Sequence record: OZ470804.1
DNA: 64,000 bases
Source: a phage
Reading direction: 5' to 3' (one strand)
This document shows positions 11,257 through 24,964 of the stretch, one piece after another. Under the pieces are notes generated by a model. That model did no database searches, had not been told where the DNA came from, and saw nothing but the letters and a program-made list of their open reading frames with translations. Made by a program: the position numbers and the translations under genes. The stretch's first letter is position 1. Each line of letters begins with the position of its first letter.

Positions 11257-19281
<8,025 letters not shown>

Positions 19282-19283
19282 TA

Positions 19284-20432
19284 ATGGCAGTAGGTGAAAT
19301 TCAAATTAGTGCCTTGCCTCAAGCAGCCTTACCGATTGACCTTAGTGATATCTTCCATCTTAAACAGGGTATCGAGGATAAGAGATGTACTCTTGAGCAA
19401 CTACTTGCTCCACACTCAAGCCTAAGAAATAACCCTCATGGTGTTACTAAGACACAAATTGGTCTAGATAATGTTATTAATGCTCTTCAGTTAGTTGCTG
19501 CAAATAACTTATCAGATATTGTTAATGTAGCTGAGGCAAGAGCAAATCTACAGATTATGTCTTCAGAAGAGGTTAATAGCCTTATTCAACAGCATATTAA
19601 TGACAAGAGCAACCCACACAATACAACTAAGGCGCAGGTTGGTTTAAGTAATGTCCAGAACTGGACAACATCTAACCTTTATAATGAAGATGCAGATAAG
19701 TATGCTACAGCAAGAGCAGTAAATAACTTGTACAAGGCTGTTCAGGCTTCTTATCCAGTAGGTACTATCCATCTCTCTATGAATCCTGCAAACCCTTCTA
19801 CATATTTAATTTGTGGAGGTACTTGGGAGTTAGTTTCAAAAGGGAGAGCACTTGTAGGTTATGATAGTGATTCTAGGCCAGTTGGTTCAACGTTTGGTTC
19901 ACAGACTACTGCACTGACGGTTAATAACATCCCTGCACATACCCACTCAGTGTATGTCACTGGTGGTGGTCACACTCATGGTGCAACGGCCTCTATCAGT
20001 GCTTTTGACTATGGTACTAAAGGGACTACAACGTTTGACTACGGAACCAAGACCGTATCTACTTACGACTATGGCAACAGAACAACAAGTGCTGCTGGCT
20101 TAACACAAACAACATTCATTAACCGTGGCTATGCTGATGGTGGTTGGAGAGGTTTATCGGTTGAGGGGGCAAGCTATGACCCAAGAGCTACGCTGACAAC
20201 AGCTAACAACCACACTCACTCTGTAGCAATTGGTGCGCATAATCATACGGTTGGTATTGGTGCTCACAGCCATACTGTTGCAATTGGTTCCCACAACCAC
20301 TCAGCAACAGTAACAGTAACCGGAGCAGGTGAGCATTCGCACTCTGGCACAACTGGTCCAACTGGTTCTGGTCAAGCATTTAGTGTTGAACAGCCATCCT
20401 TTGTATTGTATGTATGGCAGAGAACAGCTTAA
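19284..20432 (+). CDS. tail fibre protein with His-x-His repeat tip
   Basis: N-terminal repeats NPHGVTKTQIGLDNV / NPHNTTKAQVGLSNV; C-terminal HTHS, HNHT, HSHT, HNHS, HSHS repeats; C-terminus homologous to next gene. Confidence 0.85.
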   Translation: MAVGEIQISALPQAALPIDLSDIFHLKQGIEDKRCTLEQLLAPHSSLRNNPHGVTKTQIGLDNVINALQLVAANNLSDIVNVAEARANLQIMSSEEVNSLIQQHINDKSNPHNTTKAQVGLSNVQNWTTSNLYNEDADKYATARAVNNLYKAVQASYPVGTIHLSMNPANPSTYLICGGTWELVSKGRALVGYDSDSRPVGSTFGSQTTALTVNNIPAHTHSVYVTGGGHTHGATASISAFDYGTKGTTTFDYGTKTVSTYDYGNRTTSAAGLTQTTFINRGYADGGWRGLSVEGASYDPRATLTTANNHTHSVAIGAHNHTVGIGAHSHTVAIGSHNHSATVTVTGAGEHSHSGTTGPTGSGQAFSVEQPSFVLYVWQRTA

Positions 20433-20442
20433 TTTCTTTACA

Positions 20443-20462
20443 GGGGCTTTATAGCCCCTTTT
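20443..20462 (+). terminator. terminator-like hairpin between tail fibre genes
   Basis: GGGGCT / AGCCCC stem with TTAT loop followed by TTTT. Confidence 0.45.
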
Positions 20463-20478
20463 AAGAGGAAAATTTATA

Positions 20479-22833
20479 ATGGCAGATTACAAGTTGAGTG
20501 AATTAAACTCAATTGATACAATTCGTTCAGACGACCTTCTTCATGTCAGGGTTAAAAAGAGACCTGAAATGCTGGGTGATGAAGACCGTCGAATGACCTA
20601 TCAAGACTTCTTAGCATCTTTTAAACTAGAAAGGTTTGTTCAGATTGCTGGTAGCACTATGACGGGTGACTTAGGAATTGTCAAGTTACTTTATAGTGGT
20701 AAGGCAGTATTTGACCCTACAGGCTCTTCTGAGATTACTATGGGGGATGTTTTAAAGGCTTTTAAAATCAATGCAAACGGTCTTAAACTGACTATTGCAG
20801 ATGCTTCAAGGTCTGCAACTGTTTATCATACTCTGAATAAACCAAGTCCTAATGAACTTGGGATGAGAACTAATGAAGAGAATGATGCAAGATATGCAAG
20901 GCTTGCTGTAACAAACACATTTAGAGGTACTCAAGCTATTCTCTCTGACAATGAAGCCCTTATTGTTAAGAATATTACACAAGGAATGCCGCTGTATATT
21001 CGTGGTCAAGATGCAGATGGTACTAATAGGTGGTATCTAGGCAATGATAATAGGGGTACAGATAATCTGGTTATCAAAAATGTCAAATCCGGTGCGTATT
21101 TAGCTATTTTGGATAACCTAATCTCTGTGAACAAATCAATCCAAATTACTGGTCAAGTTCAGCCTTCTGACTTATCTAACTTAGATGCTAGATACTTTAC
21201 TCAGACAGCAGCTAATCAGAGATTTGCACAGTTAACTGCTAATAATACTTTTAGTGGTTTAAATACATTCAGCAACGCTGTTAACATTAGCTCTAATGCT
21301 GCTGCTATCATGCTGCAAAATAAATCTACAAATGAATCTTTATTCATCCTAGCAAAAGACAGTGAAAATAATAACTTGTGGTATATTGGGAAGGGTAGTG
21401 CAAACTCTAATATCACATTACACGATTACAAAGGTAACACCTCGATTGTCTTAGACTCGTCTGGTGCTACATTCAACAAGTCTGTAAAAATCACTGGTCA
21501 AGTTCAACCTTCTGATTGGACTAACATTGACTCTCGTTATGTTCTTGTTGGTACTTATACTAACCTTGCTAAGAAGAACGAAGCAAACTACTTCACACTA
21601 CAACAGAATATTCAGTCCGATGGTGAAGCATTAAGAATTTACAGCAAAGTCCAGAACAATGCTTCTTACATTGTTGGTAAGAATACTGATAACACTAATA
21701 AGTGGTACATTGGTTGTGGGACAAATGGTTCTGGTATTGCATCTTTCCATAACTACTTGACTGGTGCAAGGATTGATTTGTCTGATGAAGTCCTTCTGTC
21801 TAAATCTTTACAGATTAATGGACAGGTAAAACCTTCTGATTGGTCTAACTTAGATGCTAGATACTTCACTCAGTCAGCAGCTAATCAGAGATTCATGCTT
21901 GCAGGTTCTACAGGGAATGGCACAGAGCAGAATGCAGATGGTGTGGCATGGAACGCTAAAACAGGCTTATATAATGTAACATCACCAAATGGTGATTACA
22001 CATCACTTGTATTTCAAATGTATCAGGCGGTGCCATCTTCTACTGCCTGTGCGCAACTAAAGTTCCAGTATAAAAACGGTGGAATGTGGTACAGAACATC
22101 TGTAGATAGTAAAGGCTTTGAAGCTAAGTGGTCTAAGATTTACACAGAGGCTCAGAAACCAACCCCTTCAGATATTGGTGCATATACTAAAACTGAGACT
22201 GACCAGAAGATTGCGCAGGCGGTAAGTGACTCTACAGACCTTAACAAAATCTATCCAGTAGGTATTGTGACATGGTTTAACAGCAATGTTAACCCTAACA
22301 CAGCACTGCCTGGTCTAACTTGGACGTATCTGAATAATGGTGTTGGTAGAACTATCAGAATTGCAGCAGCAAATGGTTCAGATGTTGCTACAACTGGTGG
22401 TTCAGACTCTGTGACGTTAGCTGTTGGTAACTTACCTTCGCACACGCACAGTTTTTCTGCGACTACCTCATCGTTTGACTACGGAACAAAAAACACTAAC
22501 ACAACTGGTGCTCACACACACTCTGTAAGTGGCTCTACTTCATCTGCTGGTCACCACAACCACGCTATCTCGTGGATTGGTCAGAACTCTACACACTATT
22601 CTGGTGGTGGTGGTGGTAGAATCGGTACAGGTCCGGGTTACACTGATGGTGGTGGTGACCACACCCACTCTGTAAGTGGTACTGCTGGTTCTGCTGGTAA
22701 CCATGCTCACAGTGTTGGTATTGGCGCTCACAGCCATACAGTTAGCGGTAACACTGGTGGTACAGGTTCTGGTTCAGCATTTAGTGTTACTAACCAATTC
22801 TACAAGCTAATGGCTTGGGTGAGAACTGCTTAA
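20479..22833 (+). CDS. long tail fibre protein with internal repeats and His-x-His tip
   Basis: 784 aa; three ~110-aa internal repeats each containing ITGQVQPSD(W/L)(S/T)N(L/I)D; C-terminal HTHS/HHNH/HAHS/HSHT cluster; last ~25 aa match upstream fibre. Confidence 0.85.
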   Translation: MADYKLSELNSIDTIRSDDLLHVRVKKRPEMLGDEDRRMTYQDFLASFKLERFVQIAGSTMTGDLGIVKLLYSGKAVFDPTGSSEITMGDVLKAFKINANGLKLTIADASRSATVYHTLNKPSPNELGMRTNEENDARYARLAVTNTFRGTQAILSDNEALIVKNITQGMPLYIRGQDADGTNRWYLGNDNRGTDNLVIKNVKSGAYLAILDNLISVNKSIQITGQVQPSDLSNLDARYFTQTAANQRFAQLTANNTFSGLNTFSNAVNISSNAAAIMLQNKSTNESLFILAKDSENNNLWYIGKGSANSNITLHDYKGNTSIVLDSSGATFNKSVKITGQVQPSDWTNIDSRYVLVGTYTNLAKKNEANYFTLQQNIQSDGEALRIYSKVQNNASYIVGKNTDNTNKWYIGCGTNGSGIASFHNYLTGARIDLSDEVLLSKSLQINGQVKPSDWSNLDARYFTQSAANQRFMLAGSTGNGTEQNADGVAWNAKTGLYNVTSPNGDYTSLVFQMYQAVPSSTACAQLKFQYKNGGMWYRTSVDSKGFEAKWSKIYTEAQKPTPSDIGAYTKTETDQKIAQAVSDSTDLNKIYPVGIVTWFNSNVNPNTALPGLTWTYLNNGVGRTIRIAAANGSDVATTGGSDSVTLAVGNLPSHTHSFSATTSSFDYGTKNTNTTGAHTHSVSGSTSSAGHHNHAISWIGQNSTHYSGGGGGRIGTGPGYTDGGGDHTHSVSGTAGSAGNHAHSVGIGAHSHTVSGNTGGTGSGSAFSVTNQFYKLMAWVRTA

Positions 22834-22840
22834 TCCCTTG

Positions 22841-22869
22841 TTGACTGATTGTTAAGATGGTGTTAATAT
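22841..22869 (+). promoter_or_regulatory. sigma70-like promoter (TTGACT-N17-TAATAT, TGn extended -10)
   Basis: -35 TTGACT at 22841-22846, 17-nt spacer, -10 TAATAT at 22864-22869 preceded by TGT; embedded in 9-bp inverted repeat AAGATGGTG / CACCATCTT. Confidence 0.5.
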
Positions 22870-22912
22870 TCTTTATGGGTATTCTCACCATCTTGGCTGA
22901 TGAGGTGATTAA

Positions 22913-23107
22913 ATGCCTACAATCCTAGCAATTCTTCTAAAAAATCTAGGTAGCTTCTTCTGGAAACTCATTTTATCCCTTCTAAGTGAATACATGATTG
23001 AGAAAGTGTTCTTTAAGCTTGCAAGATACCTTGCGAGTAAAACAGACACACCTATTGATGATGAGTTCGTAGATAACTTAGAAAAAGCTTTTAAGGGGGA
23101 GAAATAA
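22913..23107 (+). CDS. small membrane protein
   Basis: 64-aa ORF with one hydrophobic helix ILAILLKNLGSFFWKLILSLL. Confidence 0.4.
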   Translation: MPTILAILLKNLGSFFWKLILSLLSEYMIEKVFFKLARYLASKTDTPIDDEFVDNLEKAFKGEK

Positions 23108-23473
23108 ATGAAGTGGCTAGAGGAAGCTTTTAAAAATAATATTGGTGCAATTGTAGTTGGTATTTTTAGTGTTATTGGGATGTATACCACGATGCAAGTC
23201 TCAAGTGGTAAGCAAGAAGTATCTGTCACAACAAAGTTACAGCAGCTAGATAATTATTCCAAAAGTAACTATTCAGCTATTCGTGATTTACAGTCTGACA
23301 TGAGACTGATTCAGCTAGGGATGGAGAACCAGAAAGTTCAGTTAGAGAATGTTAAGGGTGAAAACGCAAAACTTACTAAAACCCTTGATAAATTCTCTGA
23401 CAGTGTGAATAATCTGGCTCAATCGGTATCAGCCCTCCAAGCTATTACTGAGAAGAATACAAAAGAACACTGA
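23108..23473 (+). CDS. membrane-anchored coiled-coil protein
   Basis: 121 aa; N-terminal TM helix IGAIVVGIFSVIGMY then helical heptad-like region. Confidence 0.4.
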   Translation: MKWLEEAFKNNIGAIVVGIFSVIGMYTTMQVSSGKQEVSVTTKLQQLDNYSKSNYSAIRDLQSDMRLIQLGMENQKVQLENVKGENAKLTKTLDKFSDSVNNLAQSVSALQAITEKNTKEH

Positions 23474-23487
23474 AAATAAAATTTTAA

Positions 23488-23514
23488 GGCTCCTTTTTAC
23501 GGGAGCCTTTTTTG
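23488..23514. terminator. bidirectional rho-independent terminator between convergent operons
   Basis: GGCTCC / GGAGCC stem flanked by A/T runs on both sides; lies between + strand gene ending 23473 and - strand thyA ending 23518. Confidence 0.7.
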
Positions 23515-23517
23515 TTT

Positions 23518-24417
23518 CTACTTACCTACTGACAAAGGTGCTTCAATCTTTCCTGCATGTTGGTAGTTACTAATTCCACCGATAAAGTCACTTGCAGTAA
23601 GATGTTTCAGGTCACTTAAAGTATTAAGTTGTAGACCAATCTCAAAAGTTGGTGCATGGAACTCTTCATTGTTCATCAGTTCATAAACCTGCTTCATATG
23701 ATTCTGATAAATCTGAGTATCTCCAAAGACACCTATCAAGTATCGTGGAGTATACCCAGTCATCTTGCAAAGAACTTCCAGAATAAAACCATAAGATGCA
23801 ATGTTAAACGGAAGTCCTAAAAAGGTGTCTACAGAACGTTGATACCATTGTAAGTCAACTTCACCTTCGTTAGTGATATAAATCTGAAACAGTACATGGC
23901 AAGGTGCTAAAGCCATAGAGTTAGCTGCAATATCTGCTGCATTCCAAGCATTAACAAGCATGTAGCGGTCTGTGATATCACCCTTCATCTTCGTTACTAA
24001 GGTCTCTAACTGGTCTACAACACAACCATTATGACCTTCAAAGTTTCTCCACTGAACTCCATAGATTCTCCCACCTGCATCCTCTAACCAATCTTGTTCA
24101 GAAGAATAATTAGAGCTTAACCAACGTTTAAAATCATCTGACCAGATAGTCCAGCGTTCTCCGTCATTTTCACCCCAAGTACGGTAACGAAGTTCACCCA
24201 GCTTATTCTCACCATTCAGGAACCATAAAGCTTCCCCAATAACTTGCCGTGTAAACACCTGTTTAGATGTTAAGAGTGGGAAACCAGTTCTCATATCAAA
24301 ACGAAATTGTGGTGGAGCAAATGCAGAGATAACGTCTCCAGTTCGTGTAGTACGCAGTTCACCAACGGATAGAACATGGTTCAGAATATTTTTGTAACTT
24401 GAATCTGCTTGTGACAT
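23518..24417 (-). CDS. thyA: thymidylate synthase
   Basis: Translation contains MALAPCH (catalytic Cys), LQWYQRSVDTFLGLPFNIASY and GDTQIYQNH, matching ThyA. Confidence 0.95.
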   Translation of the reverse strand: MSQADSSYKNILNHVLSVGELRTTRTGDVISAFAPPQFRFDMRTGFPLLTSKQVFTRQVIGEALWFLNGENKLGELRYRTWGENDGERWTIWSDDFKRWLSSNYSSEQDWLEDAGGRIYGVQWRNFEGHNGCVVDQLETLVTKMKGDITDRYMLVNAWNAADIAANSMALAPCHVLFQIYITNEGEVDLQWYQRSVDTFLGLPFNIASYGFILEVLCKMTGYTPRYLIGVFGDTQIYQNHMKQVYELMNNEEFHAPTFEIGLQLNTLSDLKHLTASDFIGGISNYQHAGKIEAPLSVGK

Positions 24418-24418
24418 A

Positions 24419-24964
24419 TCAAAAGTGTCCTTTTACTTGTGGAACATAAATTTCAAAGGTTGCTTTACCATCATCTGAGGGTCTTGACTGCACCTTTGCA
24501 AATACACGGCTATCATACAATTTATCGAAGAAGTTTTCAAAAGGTAAATACACAGTGGCCTCTTCAGTGACTTTATGGAAAACTGTATGGAAAACTACAC
24601 CAGCATACGGCAAAGCATCGACAAGAACACCTGCACCACCAATTACAAAGACATCTTCATCAATAGAGCTGTCAAGATACTTCAAAAATGCTCCAAAGGA
24701 TTCTTTACTAGCCTTAGCATACATTACATCGTCTTTGTCAAAGTCTATACCCAAATATGGAACAGAGTTCGTTAAGACGAGGTTTGTACGTTCTGGTAAT
24801 GGTTTACTACCCAGAGTCTTAAAAGTTTCATTACCCATTACTACTAAGTTATCTTTAGTGAGTCTCTTAAACTCTTGCATATCTTGCTTATGTCGAGGCC
24901 ACGGCATACCAGTTGGAGTACCAAACTCCCCATTTTCACCACTTGCAAAGATTAATTTAATCAT
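24419..24964 (-). CDS. frd: dihydrofolate reductase
   Basis: GTPTGMPWP, VVMGNETFKTLG, PLPERTNLVLT and VIGGAGVL motifs; adjacent to thyA. Confidence 0.9.
   Translation of the reverse strand: MIKLIFASGENGEFGTPTGMPWPRHKQDMQEFKRLTKDNLVVMGNETFKTLGSKPLPERTNLVLTNSVPYLGIDFDKDDVMYAKASKESFGAFLKYLDSSIDEDVFVIGGAGVLVDALPYAGVVFHTVFHKVTEEATVYLPFENFFDKLYDSRVFAKVQSRPSDDGKATFEIYVPQVKGHF

Follow-up and report, generated by a model that had tools for sequence, protein, structure and literature searches.

In a coliphage of the genus Felixounavirus (Ounavirinae), positions 19284 to 22833 of the window (the whole 64,000-nt stretch of phage DNA analysed here) very probably encode a short and a long receptor-binding fibre, which carry T4 gp37-type tips and evolve by swapping cassettes. 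The identity of the genes, their homology to T4 gp37, the pattern of conservation and the mosaicism are direct observations. The fibre architecture and its HxH tips, to which the first-pass annotation had drawn attention, are genuine features already known from published work, and therefore add no new kind of system. For cassette shuffling in Felixounavirus fibres, our literature search found no prior account, only general remarks on fibre diversity.

Identity and setting of the two fibre genes

The two open reading frames lie side by side on the (+) strand at 19284-20432 (382 aa) and 20479-22833 (784 aa), with the same coordinates as in the first-pass annotation. The region was assigned to Felixounavirus by megablast (239 matching records, the top one being JLBYU32 at 94.6%). 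Genes 23-30 of Bas63, that is Escherichia phage JohannRWettstein, are syntenic with the window, and the short tail fibre (STF) and long tail fibre (LTF) genes follow baseplate wedge and platform genes, as they do in Bas63. Both Bas63 fibres, gp26 (STF) and gp27 (LTF), have been described by cryo-EM (Sci Adv 2025, PMC12609058). As context, the 100-aa ORF at 18979..19281 (+) has the position and length of bas63_0025 and matches phrog_4141 (E 3.3e-62), making it the counterpart of the platform gene for Bas63 gp25, a T4 gp9-like long-fibre platform (PMC12609058).

Directly 3' of the platform gene, in the order of bas63_0023-0027, the STF is the orthologue of Bas63 gp26 over its full length (380/382 residues identical, 99%) and matches phrog_2097 tail fiber (E 6e-129). 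The LTF is the orthologue of gp27, with colinear homology over the full length (595/786 residues identical, 76%), a match to phrog_4277 over residues 1-784 (E 0), three PF20744 stretches plus PF12604, and an HHxH motif at 692-695. Promoter and terminator scans of 18800-23600 returned 13 against 12.1 and 4 against 2.9 in shuffles, counts at shuffle level that therefore give no sign of internal regulation, and a tRNA scan of the window found none.

Collar, needle and head of the fibre tips

Both genes match PHROG tail-fibre families, and the proposal that the two fibres are paralogous holds for their tips by BLASTP (STF residues 157-382 against LTF 592-784, 33% identity, E 1e-14); the N-terminal halves have no detectable sequence similarity. 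The common C-terminal module noted earlier was recovered: in both proteins an HxH-rich segment precedes ...GSGxAFSV...WxRTA, with the STF ending in ...TGPTGSGQAFSVEQPSFVLYVWQRTA and the LTF in ...TGGTGSGSAFSVTNQFYKLMAWVRTA. Seven HxH motifs are present in the STF (residues 219, 230, 310, 319, 328, 337, 351) and six in the LTF (655, 679, 693, 728, 742, 751), where the motif at 693 has an extra His before it (HHNH, His 692/693/695). The first-pass annotation found these clusters reminiscent of T4-type needles, and the likeness turns out to be true homology: both tips match the iron-binding tip of T4 gp37 (PDB 2XGF) by phmmer (STF E 8.5e-15, LTF E 3.6e-13), with His boxes colinear. Five STF boxes align with T4 boxes and five LTF boxes with T4 boxes 2-6; the first LTF box, which sits unaligned at the alignment edge, is probably the counterpart of T4 box 1. 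Pfam matches in the tips are Gp10_C, three of gp37_trimer, and gp37_C.

The STF tip begins with a collar of the T4 gp10 C-terminal or gp37 type (~residues 154-215, 19743..19928, +), identified by PF21939 Gp10_C (residues 154-260, 65.1 bits against a cut-off of 27) and by phmmer matches to the gp10 structures 2FKK and 5HX2 as well as to 2XGF; its conservation among relatives is 0.92-0.93. The ascending needle strand, with approximate boundaries at residues 216-260 (19929..20063, +), bears HxH 1-2 and aligns with the AHSHS...FDYGTK segment of 2XGF. Three 11-aa repeats of FDYGTK type occur here: two are inside this strand and the last (YDYGN, 261-265) lies just beyond the approximate boundary. 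FDYG copy number ranges from 1 to 4 among relatives' STFs. There follows the head, a hypervariable cassette that putatively contacts the receptor (~residues 261-307, 20064..20204, +). Per-residue identity to relatives is 0.24-0.43 here, against at least 0.9 in the N-terminal 200 residues and at least 0.8 in the flanking His-box and C-terminal blocks, and for phages with a 93-96% identical backbone, identity in the head DNA is 39-51%. The descending needle (~residues 308-355, 20205..20348, +) carries His boxes 3-7, aligns with T4 NHSHT/DHSHS/AHTHT/SHGHT and includes a tandem repeat at 20226-20299 (period 27 nt) encoding GAHxHTVxI. The C-terminal strand TGPTGSGQAFSVEQPSFVLYVWQRTA (20349..20429, +; conserved at 0.85-0.94) may return to the collar by analogy with Bas63 and T4, in which the chain doubles back to the collar (PMC12609058).

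The LTF tip has the same layout. Its collar (~residues 589-650, 22243..22428, +; conserved at 0.90-0.92) scores 22.5 bits with Pfam Gp10_C, under the 27-bit cut-off, and was assigned by its alignment with the STF collar within the BLASTP match given above. The ascending needle (~residues 651-695, 22429..22563, +) holds HxH 1-3 including HHNH and is colinear with T4 gp37 FDYGTK/GHTHS/EHSHY. The head (~residues 696-726, 22564..22656, +) is a variable cassette, with an identity of 0.31 and 10 allele types, and it is followed by the descending needle and C-terminal strand GTGSGSAFSVTNQFYKLMAWVRTA (22657..22830, +), which holds HxH 4-6 and is conserved at 0.88-0.99.

By homology to T4, we infer that the tips bind metal; we likewise infer their trimer geometry, their contact with the receptor and an effect on host range. 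Both fibres would be homotrimeric, each with a T4 gp37-type tip made up of a gp10-like collar, three strands that ascend to a small variable head (perhaps the receptor-contact part of the fibre), three strands that descend from it, and a closing strand (AFSV...WxRTA) running back to the collar. Published cryo-EM density and AlphaFold 3 models of the tip of Bas63 gp26 depict such a six-stranded trimeric needle doubling back at the head (PMC12609058). HxH side chains of all three chains are predicted to face the fibre axis, each triplet holding one octahedrally coordinated metal ion, as Fe2+ is held in T4; the predicted sites, seven in the short fibre and six in the long, would make the needle stiffer. 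A single-sequence AlphaFold2 prediction of STF residues 140-382, run as a single chain with no alignment, gave a pLDDT of 33 and a pTM of 0.14, values too low for the model to be used.

It is unlikely that the HxH motifs work without metal in these fibres, as a packing motif of beta-strands or as a relic kept only for recombination homology. Such a role would fit the difference in HxH number between alleles (7 or 9 in STFs; 4, 6 or 7 in LTFs), and the density of the fibres in the Bas63 maps was too weak for side-chain modelling (PMC12609058). However, the motifs are colinear with the T4 gp37 His boxes, they persist amid variable surrounding residues in all the relatives inspected for tip sequence, and HxH iron sites have been proposed for tail spikes of the same phages (PMC12609058; Sf14 paper).

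Repeats and cassette exchange along the fibres

Conserved linkers alternate with variable blocks along the fibres in per-residue identity to relatives. The LTF opens with an N-terminal part and first shaft domain (residues 1-140, 20479..20898, +) for which the Bas63 paper gives a baseplate-binding role (PMC12609058); identity among relatives is 0.83-0.95, with a single allele type at >=80% identity. The three internal repeats described in the first-pass annotation are present as paralogous units of 108-115 aa, matched by three stretches of Pfam PF20744 (E 3.8e-59) and 34-46% identical as protein (z 16-26 against shuffles). Unit 1 (residues 141-252, 20899..21234, +), a PF20744 stretch, consists of a variable body (identity 0.47-0.63) and then junction J1 (21133-21231, identity ~0.8), with 11 allele types. 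Unit 2 (residues 253-367, 21235..21579, +), likewise a variable body followed by J2 (21478-21537), shares 34-39% identity with units 1 and 3 (z 16-18), has 17 allele types and weakly matches the C-terminal region of T7 gp17 (4A0T, E 6e-6). Unit 3 (residues 368-475, 21580..21903, +), a variable body and then J3 (21802-21900), shares 46% identity with unit 1 (z 25.5) and has 16 allele types. The fifth shaft slot (residues 476-588, 21904..22242, +) holds a Mu/P1/P2 S/H-type domain followed by the conserved linker J4. It matches Pfam PF12604 (E 2.4e-17) and PDB 8JU3 (Mu S/S', E 7.8e-17), with tblastn matches to P1 Sv', Peduovirus H and Mu S, and is the most variable LTF part (identity 0.17-0.38); in eight relatives an unrelated 142-aa domain takes its place.

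At the DNA level the repeat copies begin at 21130, 21475 and 21799 (spacing 345 and 324 nt), with conserved junctions at 21133, 21478 and 21802. Near-identity of the DNA, which had been claimed for all three, applies to copies 1 and 3 (a 23-nt exact match, 84% identity over 92 nt) and not to copy 2, which shares exact matches of only 14 nt with the others and is 72-75% identical to them. In the J1/J3 core, a segment picked after the match was seen, 14/16 synonymous codons are shared against 7.2 expected (P ~5e-4). The three paralogous units stand in tandem, their junctions are homologous, and J1 and J3 are homogenised at the DNA level, as one might expect if the repeats served chiefly for unequal crossing-over, which would alter copy number and fibre length and so tune reach. 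This is very unlikely. Slot structure is constant in 32/32 complete LTFs (R1 76-78, R2 82-84, R3 76-80 aa), so that the comparison of repeat copy number proposed in the first-pass annotation showed no variation; every LTF tested has three PF20744 stretches, and none with two or four units was found among the relatives examined. The Bas63 paper also gives repeat number as invariant (PMC12609058), and the two LTF length classes (~780 and ~845 aa) are due to the unrelated 142-aa fifth-slot domain and to head size.

What varies among relatives is the content of the slots. The comparison covered 31-33 relatives, with 32 complete LTFs used for slot structure and allele types. The suggested search for domain swaps across related phages supports recombination: independent assortment is seen for the bodies of the repeats, for the fifth shaft domain and for the tip heads. 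Relatives with 97-100% identical flanks display every combination of same and different cassettes for R1, R2 and R3 plus fifth domain. Full four-gamete sets are formed by R2{d,e} x R3{a,g} in the window and in relatives L030, L029 and L033, and by R1{a,g} x R2{b,h} in L004, L006, L021 and L016. In otherwise near-identical phages, adjacent blocks drop from 97-100% to 32-50% DNA identity within ~60 nt. Two relatives with a distant backbone (L013 and L014, 77-82%) have R3 and head cassettes 87% identical to those of the window.

Cassettes have also moved between positions. R1+J1 of L002 (290 nt) is 94.1% identical to R3+J3 of L011, and nt 748-947 of the L003 STF are 91% identical to nt 1990-2189 of its own LTF, placing the same head on both fibres. 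In the window, the longest exact match between the STF and LTF genes is 16 nt, and they have one 30-nt stretch at 93% in common; therefore no recent exchange has occurred between them in this phage.

These observations bear on whether the variable blocks could instead have arisen lineage by lineage, through point mutations that accumulated fast under diversifying selection, with the linkers and His boxes structurally conserved and no cassettes exchanged. Linkers (triple-helix turns) and His boxes (putative metal ligands) are structural elements, and purifying selection alone would therefore conserve them; the Bas63 paper explains the diversity by 'substantial sequence variation between species' (PMC12609058). 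However, point divergence accounts poorly for identity that jumps so abruptly and in all combinations, for the four-gamete sets, for the R3 and head cassettes on the L013/L014 backbones, or for the 94%-identical cassette in two different slots, and neither congruent block trees nor identity falling smoothly as backbones diverge was seen. We consider it extremely unlikely as an explanation and retain cassette exchange.

The claim that this region is a site of recombination is thus upheld by cassette mosaicism, slot-hopping, exchange between fibres in relatives, and breakpoints at linkers and His boxes. The 179 breakpoints that cluster there were all measured against a single reference and, given that one reference and the shared ancestry of the relatives, are not independent events; their clustering at conserved segments is partly expected, owing something to the detection method and to selection for correctly folded recombinants. 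Clusters were located in the STF at 20184-20243 and 20364-20393, in unit 1 at 20874-20933, 21114-21173 and 21234-21293, in unit 2 at 21444-21503 and 21534-21563, in unit 3 at 21804-21893, and in the LTF head at 22524-22583 and 22644-22733. A "hotspot" here probably means only the stretches with sufficient homology rather than targeted breakage. Homologous recombination between co-infecting relatives would resolve at linkers and His boxes because only there is DNA homology between diverged alleles sufficient. The LTF shaft is predicted to consist of beta-rich domains with conserved helical linkers between them, three of the domains being paralogous repeats recognisable by sequence and the fifth being of the Mu/P1/P2 S type. 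Exchange of this kind would move whole cassettes, namely repeat bodies, the fifth domain and heads, which may occasionally pass between repeat slots or between the STF and LTF genes.

Host recognition and comparison with known systems

At least 10-17 alleles occur at each of the shaft slots and the head in 32 phages. It is possible, and we propose it tentatively, that the LTF shaft is a combinatorial recognition array and not an inert spacer, with repeat slots, fifth slot and head reshuffled via linker homology. If so, the shaft domains would bind host surface glycans, allowing multivalent lateral binding, and the diversifying pressure that acts on the tip would act equally on them. Felixounaviruses are in wide use for diagnostics, biocontrol and therapy of Salmonella and E. 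coli, with the two fibres expected to set host range. The comparison maps where cassettes are exchanged in frame in nature, namely at linkers J0-J4 and at the His boxes, and according to this map shaft domains are exchangeable to the same degree as tips. The map is directly useful for host-range engineering, since cassettes should be swappable at these points with the protein kept intact.

The closest described system is Bas63, which belongs to the same genus and agrees in gene order, protein lengths (382 and 784 aa) and HxH counts. Its fibres end in collar/needle/head tips of the T4 gp37 kind, bearing 7 and 6 HxH motifs and HHxH at 692/693/695, and its LTF has five shaft domains with triple-helix linkers (PMC12609058). 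The LTF tip is nearly identical to that of the window, including HHNH at 692-695, and the two LTFs have the same allele of repeat 2 but differ in those of repeat 1, repeat 3 and the fifth domain (40-58% DNA identity). The Bas63 paper called the non-conservation of shaft domains 'unexpected' and did not read it as cassette exchange (PMC12609058). Infection by Bas63 requires the LPS core (BASEL paper); the Bas63 gene-essentiality preprint makes no statement on the fibre genes.

The T4 gp37 tip (2XGF) resembles those described here in its collar, FDYGTK motif, colinear GxHxH boxes and closing C-terminal strand, and its His boxes coordinate Fe ions along the needle (PMC12609058). It differs in belonging to a four-protein fibre, whereas each fibre here is the product of a single gene. 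T4 boxes are arranged as three ascending and four descending, compared with two and five in the STF; the LTF lacks T4's seventh box, and the heads are unrelated in sequence. T4 gp37 depends on the dedicated chaperones gp38 and gp57A. No gp38-type chaperone gene adjoins the fibre genes in the window, the two downstream ORFs being small membrane or holin-like proteins, and no homologues of Mu-type chaperones are reported for a related Ounavirinae phage (Sf14 paper). With T4 gp34, the LTF has no significant sequence match; its likeness to the gp34 rod (5NXH) is structural, in beta-rich domains with triple-helix turns (PMC12609058).

The distal fibre domains of Mu (S/S'), P1 (S, Sv') and P2 (H; PF12604, 8JU3) are homologous to LTF residues ~472-579, which are 36-42% identical to P1 and Peduovirus fibres. 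In Mu and P1 the S-type region precedes or makes the fibre end and is switched through DNA inversion. The S-type domain here, unlike theirs, is an internal shaft slot with a T4-type tip after it, and no invertase was seen adjoining it. The Mu-plus-T4 hybrid character of the fibre was already noted in the Sf14 paper.

For exchange itself, the nearest model is that of T-even gene 37. There, variable adhesin segments lie between conserved His boxes, which are also the sites of recombinant junctions, and the same is seen here. Recombination mediated by His boxes (GxHxH) in T-even gene 37/38 was reportedly described by Tetart et al. in 1998 and Sandmeier in 1994. The Felixounavirus fibres differ from that model in that exchange takes place also at the helical linkers of the shaft repeats, and in that cassettes pass between paralogous fibre genes (L003) and between repeat slots (L002/L011).

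The fibre locus and its surroundings

The two fibre genes are adjacent plus-strand ORFs encoding a short tail fibre (STF, 19284-20432, 382 aa) and a long tail fibre (LTF, 20479-22833, 784 aa), and upstream of them lie two wedge genes, one Baseplate_J-like (16650-18119) and the other at 18122-18979, followed by an ORF of 100 aa (18979-19281). Megablast searches with the fibre region matched 239 phage records, nearly all Felixounavirus with Escherichia, Salmonella, Citrobacter and Shigella hosts, and the top match was Escherichia phage JLBYU32 (94% of the query aligned, at 94.6% identity). Genes 23-30 of Bas63 (Escherichia phage JohannRWettstein) have the same order as the window; its gp26 is identical to the STF at 380 of 382 residues and its gp27 to the LTF at 595 of 786 (76%).

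The 46-nt gap between the fibre genes (20433-20478) contains a hairpin, GGGGC-TTTATA-GCCCC followed by TTTT, which could act as a leaky terminator or RNA stabiliser setting the ratio of the two fibres; it was absent from the output of a consensus terminator scan. A strong ribosome-binding site (AAGAGGA) lies between this hairpin and the LTF ATG at 20479. On the 3' side of the LTF, ORF 22913-23107 encodes a 64-aa hydrophobic protein (phrog_402, without a Pfam match), whose counterpart in JLBYU32 is annotated as 'L-fuculose phosphate aldolase', a label that is almost certainly wrong. The 121-aa product of ORF 23108-23473, annotated as a holin in relatives, has at its N-terminus a hydrophobic stretch resembling a membrane anchor. 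It probably also forms a coiled coil, its Pfam matches to coiled-coil families all being weak and sub-threshold. Neither qualifies as a fibre chaperone. At 23486-23509, where the plus-strand late genes meet a minus-strand block, a GC-rich hairpin flanked on each side by T-runs resembles a bidirectional terminator; the minus-strand block contains the thymidylate synthase gene (23518-24417) and a DHFR-like one (24419-24964). Between about 24 and 34 kb of the window the GC skew is negative, and ARAGORN found no tRNA genes across window 1-64000.

Needle tips of the two fibres

Both fibres end in the shared module described in the first-pass annotation (...GSGQAFSV...WQRTA in the STF, ...GSGSAFSV...WVRTA in the LTF), and over their C-terminal parts (~195-230 residues) the two proteins are 33% identical (E 1e-14). 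The HxH clusters noted there are also present, with seven motifs in the short fibre and six in the long, one of the latter being HHNH (His 692/693/695). What had been called a likeness to T4-type needle tips reflects true homology to the T4 gp37 receptor-binding tip: phmmer searches of the PDB matched 2XGF to the STF (E 8.5e-15) and to the LTF (E 3.6e-13), and in these alignments the FDYGTK motif and GxHxH boxes are colinear between both tips and 2XGF. The STF collar is recognised by Pfam Gp10_C (65 bits) and also matched the C-terminal domain of T4 gp10 (2FKK, 5HX2). Single-chain structure prediction of the STF tip without an alignment gave a pLDDT of 33, too low to be of use. Trimers would form a T4-type needle with one axial metal ion per HxH triplet, and the heads, possibly together with shaft domains, would contact LPS.

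Among relatives, the HxH count changes with the head allele: STFs have 7 or 9 motifs and LTFs 4, 6 or 7. Three copies of an FDYGTK-type 11-aa repeat (STF residues 239-265, window 19998-20078) lie in the short fibre's ascending needle; relatives have 1-4 copies, and copy number covaries with the STF HxH count and protein length (375-402 aa).

Shaft repeats and cassette mosaicism

The three internal repeats reported for the LTF are real, with DNA copies at 21130, 21475 and 21799 (spacings of 345 and 324 nt), three Pfam PF20744 stretches (E 3.8e-59) and protein units at 34-46% identity (z 16-26). Their description as near-identical DNA is overstated: it holds only for J1 and J3, the conserved junctions closing repeat cassettes R1 and R3 (23-nt exact match, 84% over 92 nt), and fails for J2, which has only 72-75% identity to the others. 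In the J1/J3 core, a segment picked after the fact, the same codon is used at 14 of 16 identical residues versus 7.2 predicted by the codon usage of the locality (P about 5e-4), which points to homogenisation at the DNA level.

Further along, the segment spanning LTF residues 472-579 has homologues in the Mu S/S' fibre (8JU3, E 7.8e-17) and in the fibres P1 Sv' and P2-like H. The fifth domain, which follows R3 (~82 aa, PF12604, Mu/P1-type), is swapped for an unrelated ~142-aa domain in 8 of 32 relatives (L033, which is momo, and loci L006, L011, L016, L017, L019, L022 and L023). LTFs therefore fall into two length classes, of about 780 and, with the replacement domain, about 845 aa. In the one LTF of the longer kind that was scanned, that of momo, residues about 476-620 had no Pfam domain match.

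Relatives comprised 28 IMG/VR loci, fetched via the conserved wedge gene, and six GenBank phages. Per-residue conservation falls into strikingly distinct blocks. The STF is variable in its head alone (residues about 261-320, conservation 0.24-0.43), and the variable blocks of the LTF are the head (0.31), the fifth domain (0.17-0.38) and the R1-R3 bodies. Conserved LTF parts are the N-terminal 140 residues (including J0, the linker before R1), the linkers J1-J4 (about 0.7-0.9; J4 follows the fifth domain) and the collar; the His-box/C-terminal strand is conserved at 0.85-0.99.

Domain swaps were evident across these relatives, cassettes assorting in mosaic fashion: in phages whose flanks are 97-100% identical, cassettes are the same or different in every combination. 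Relative to the window, JLBYU32 differs in repeat 2 only, SSBS18 in repeat 1 only (its record reaches only to repeat 3), and tootiki in repeats 1 and 2; the fifth domain differs in Bas63, together with repeats 1 and 3, and in nataliec, together with repeats 2 and 3. With allele types defined as clusters at ≥80% amino-acid identity, 32 phages carried 11 types at R1, 17 at R2, 16 at R3, 17 at the fifth domain and 10 at the head, and several slot pairs showed all four "gametes". Two loci with a backbone at 77-82% (L013, L014) have R3 and head cassettes 87% identical to those of the window. Repeat copy number, which the first-pass annotation proposed comparing alongside domain swaps, was constant, as were slot lengths. 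The LTF frame is split into two ORFs in L020 (541+259 aa) and L026 (453+311 aa), which could be a frameshift, a stop or an assembly error; LTFs are apparently truncated in phages EC6 and Si3 (PMC12609058).

Breakpoints, exchange and prior descriptions

Identity breakpoints (179, all counted against one reference, the window, and not independent events) cluster within a handful of 30-nt bins, which lie at J0-J4 and at the His boxes on either side of each head. Two findings go further than exchange in register. R1 and J1 of locus L002 (LTF nt 432-721) are 94.1% identical over 290 nt to R3 and J3 of L011 (LTF nt 1101-1390), an out-of-register move between repeat slots 1 and 3. In L003 (IMGVR_UViG_2706796270_000001), STF nt 748-947 match the phage's own LTF nt 1990-2189 at 91% over 200 nt, and both fibres have the same head and needle segment, with the identical peptide HTHTVGGHYGGDSIGGKQRVQASGTAQVSSVAGDHSHTVSG; the shared head implies copying between the two fibre genes. 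Weaker head sharing in L008 (81%) and L017 (79.5%) represents older versions of the same kind. The STF and LTF genes of the window phage share only 16-30-nt matches.

The proposal that the repeats and C-termini are recombination hotspots is supported by mosaicism and by breakpoints at linkers and His boxes among relatives. Part of the clustering at conserved segments would be expected anyway, both from recombination that depends on homology and from selection for products that fold, and "hotspot" is to be read in that limited sense. Recombination between diverged alleles would have homology to use only in the conserved linkers and His boxes, so that whole folding units would be exchanged. Gene identity, homology, conservation pattern and mosaicism are established directly; the observation in the first-pass annotation was correct and its interpretation is supported.

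Adhesin exchange mediated by His boxes is a classic T-even concept. The literature that we searched on Felixounavirus fibres did not contain the features added here: an explicit cassette map, slot-hopping, head copying between fibres and two alternative fifth-slot domains. Fibre architecture and HxH tips are already published for orthologues, including a 99%-identical protein. The Sf14 paper described a fibre that is Mu-like and ends distally in a tip resembling T4 gp37, and noted that Mu-type chaperones are lacking; the later cryo-EM study of Bas63 (PMC12609058, 2025) reported a short fibre (gp26) of 430 Å with seven motifs and a long fibre (gp27) of 630 Å with six, including HHxH at 692/693/695, and with a shaft of five beta-rich domains that have triple-helix turns between them.
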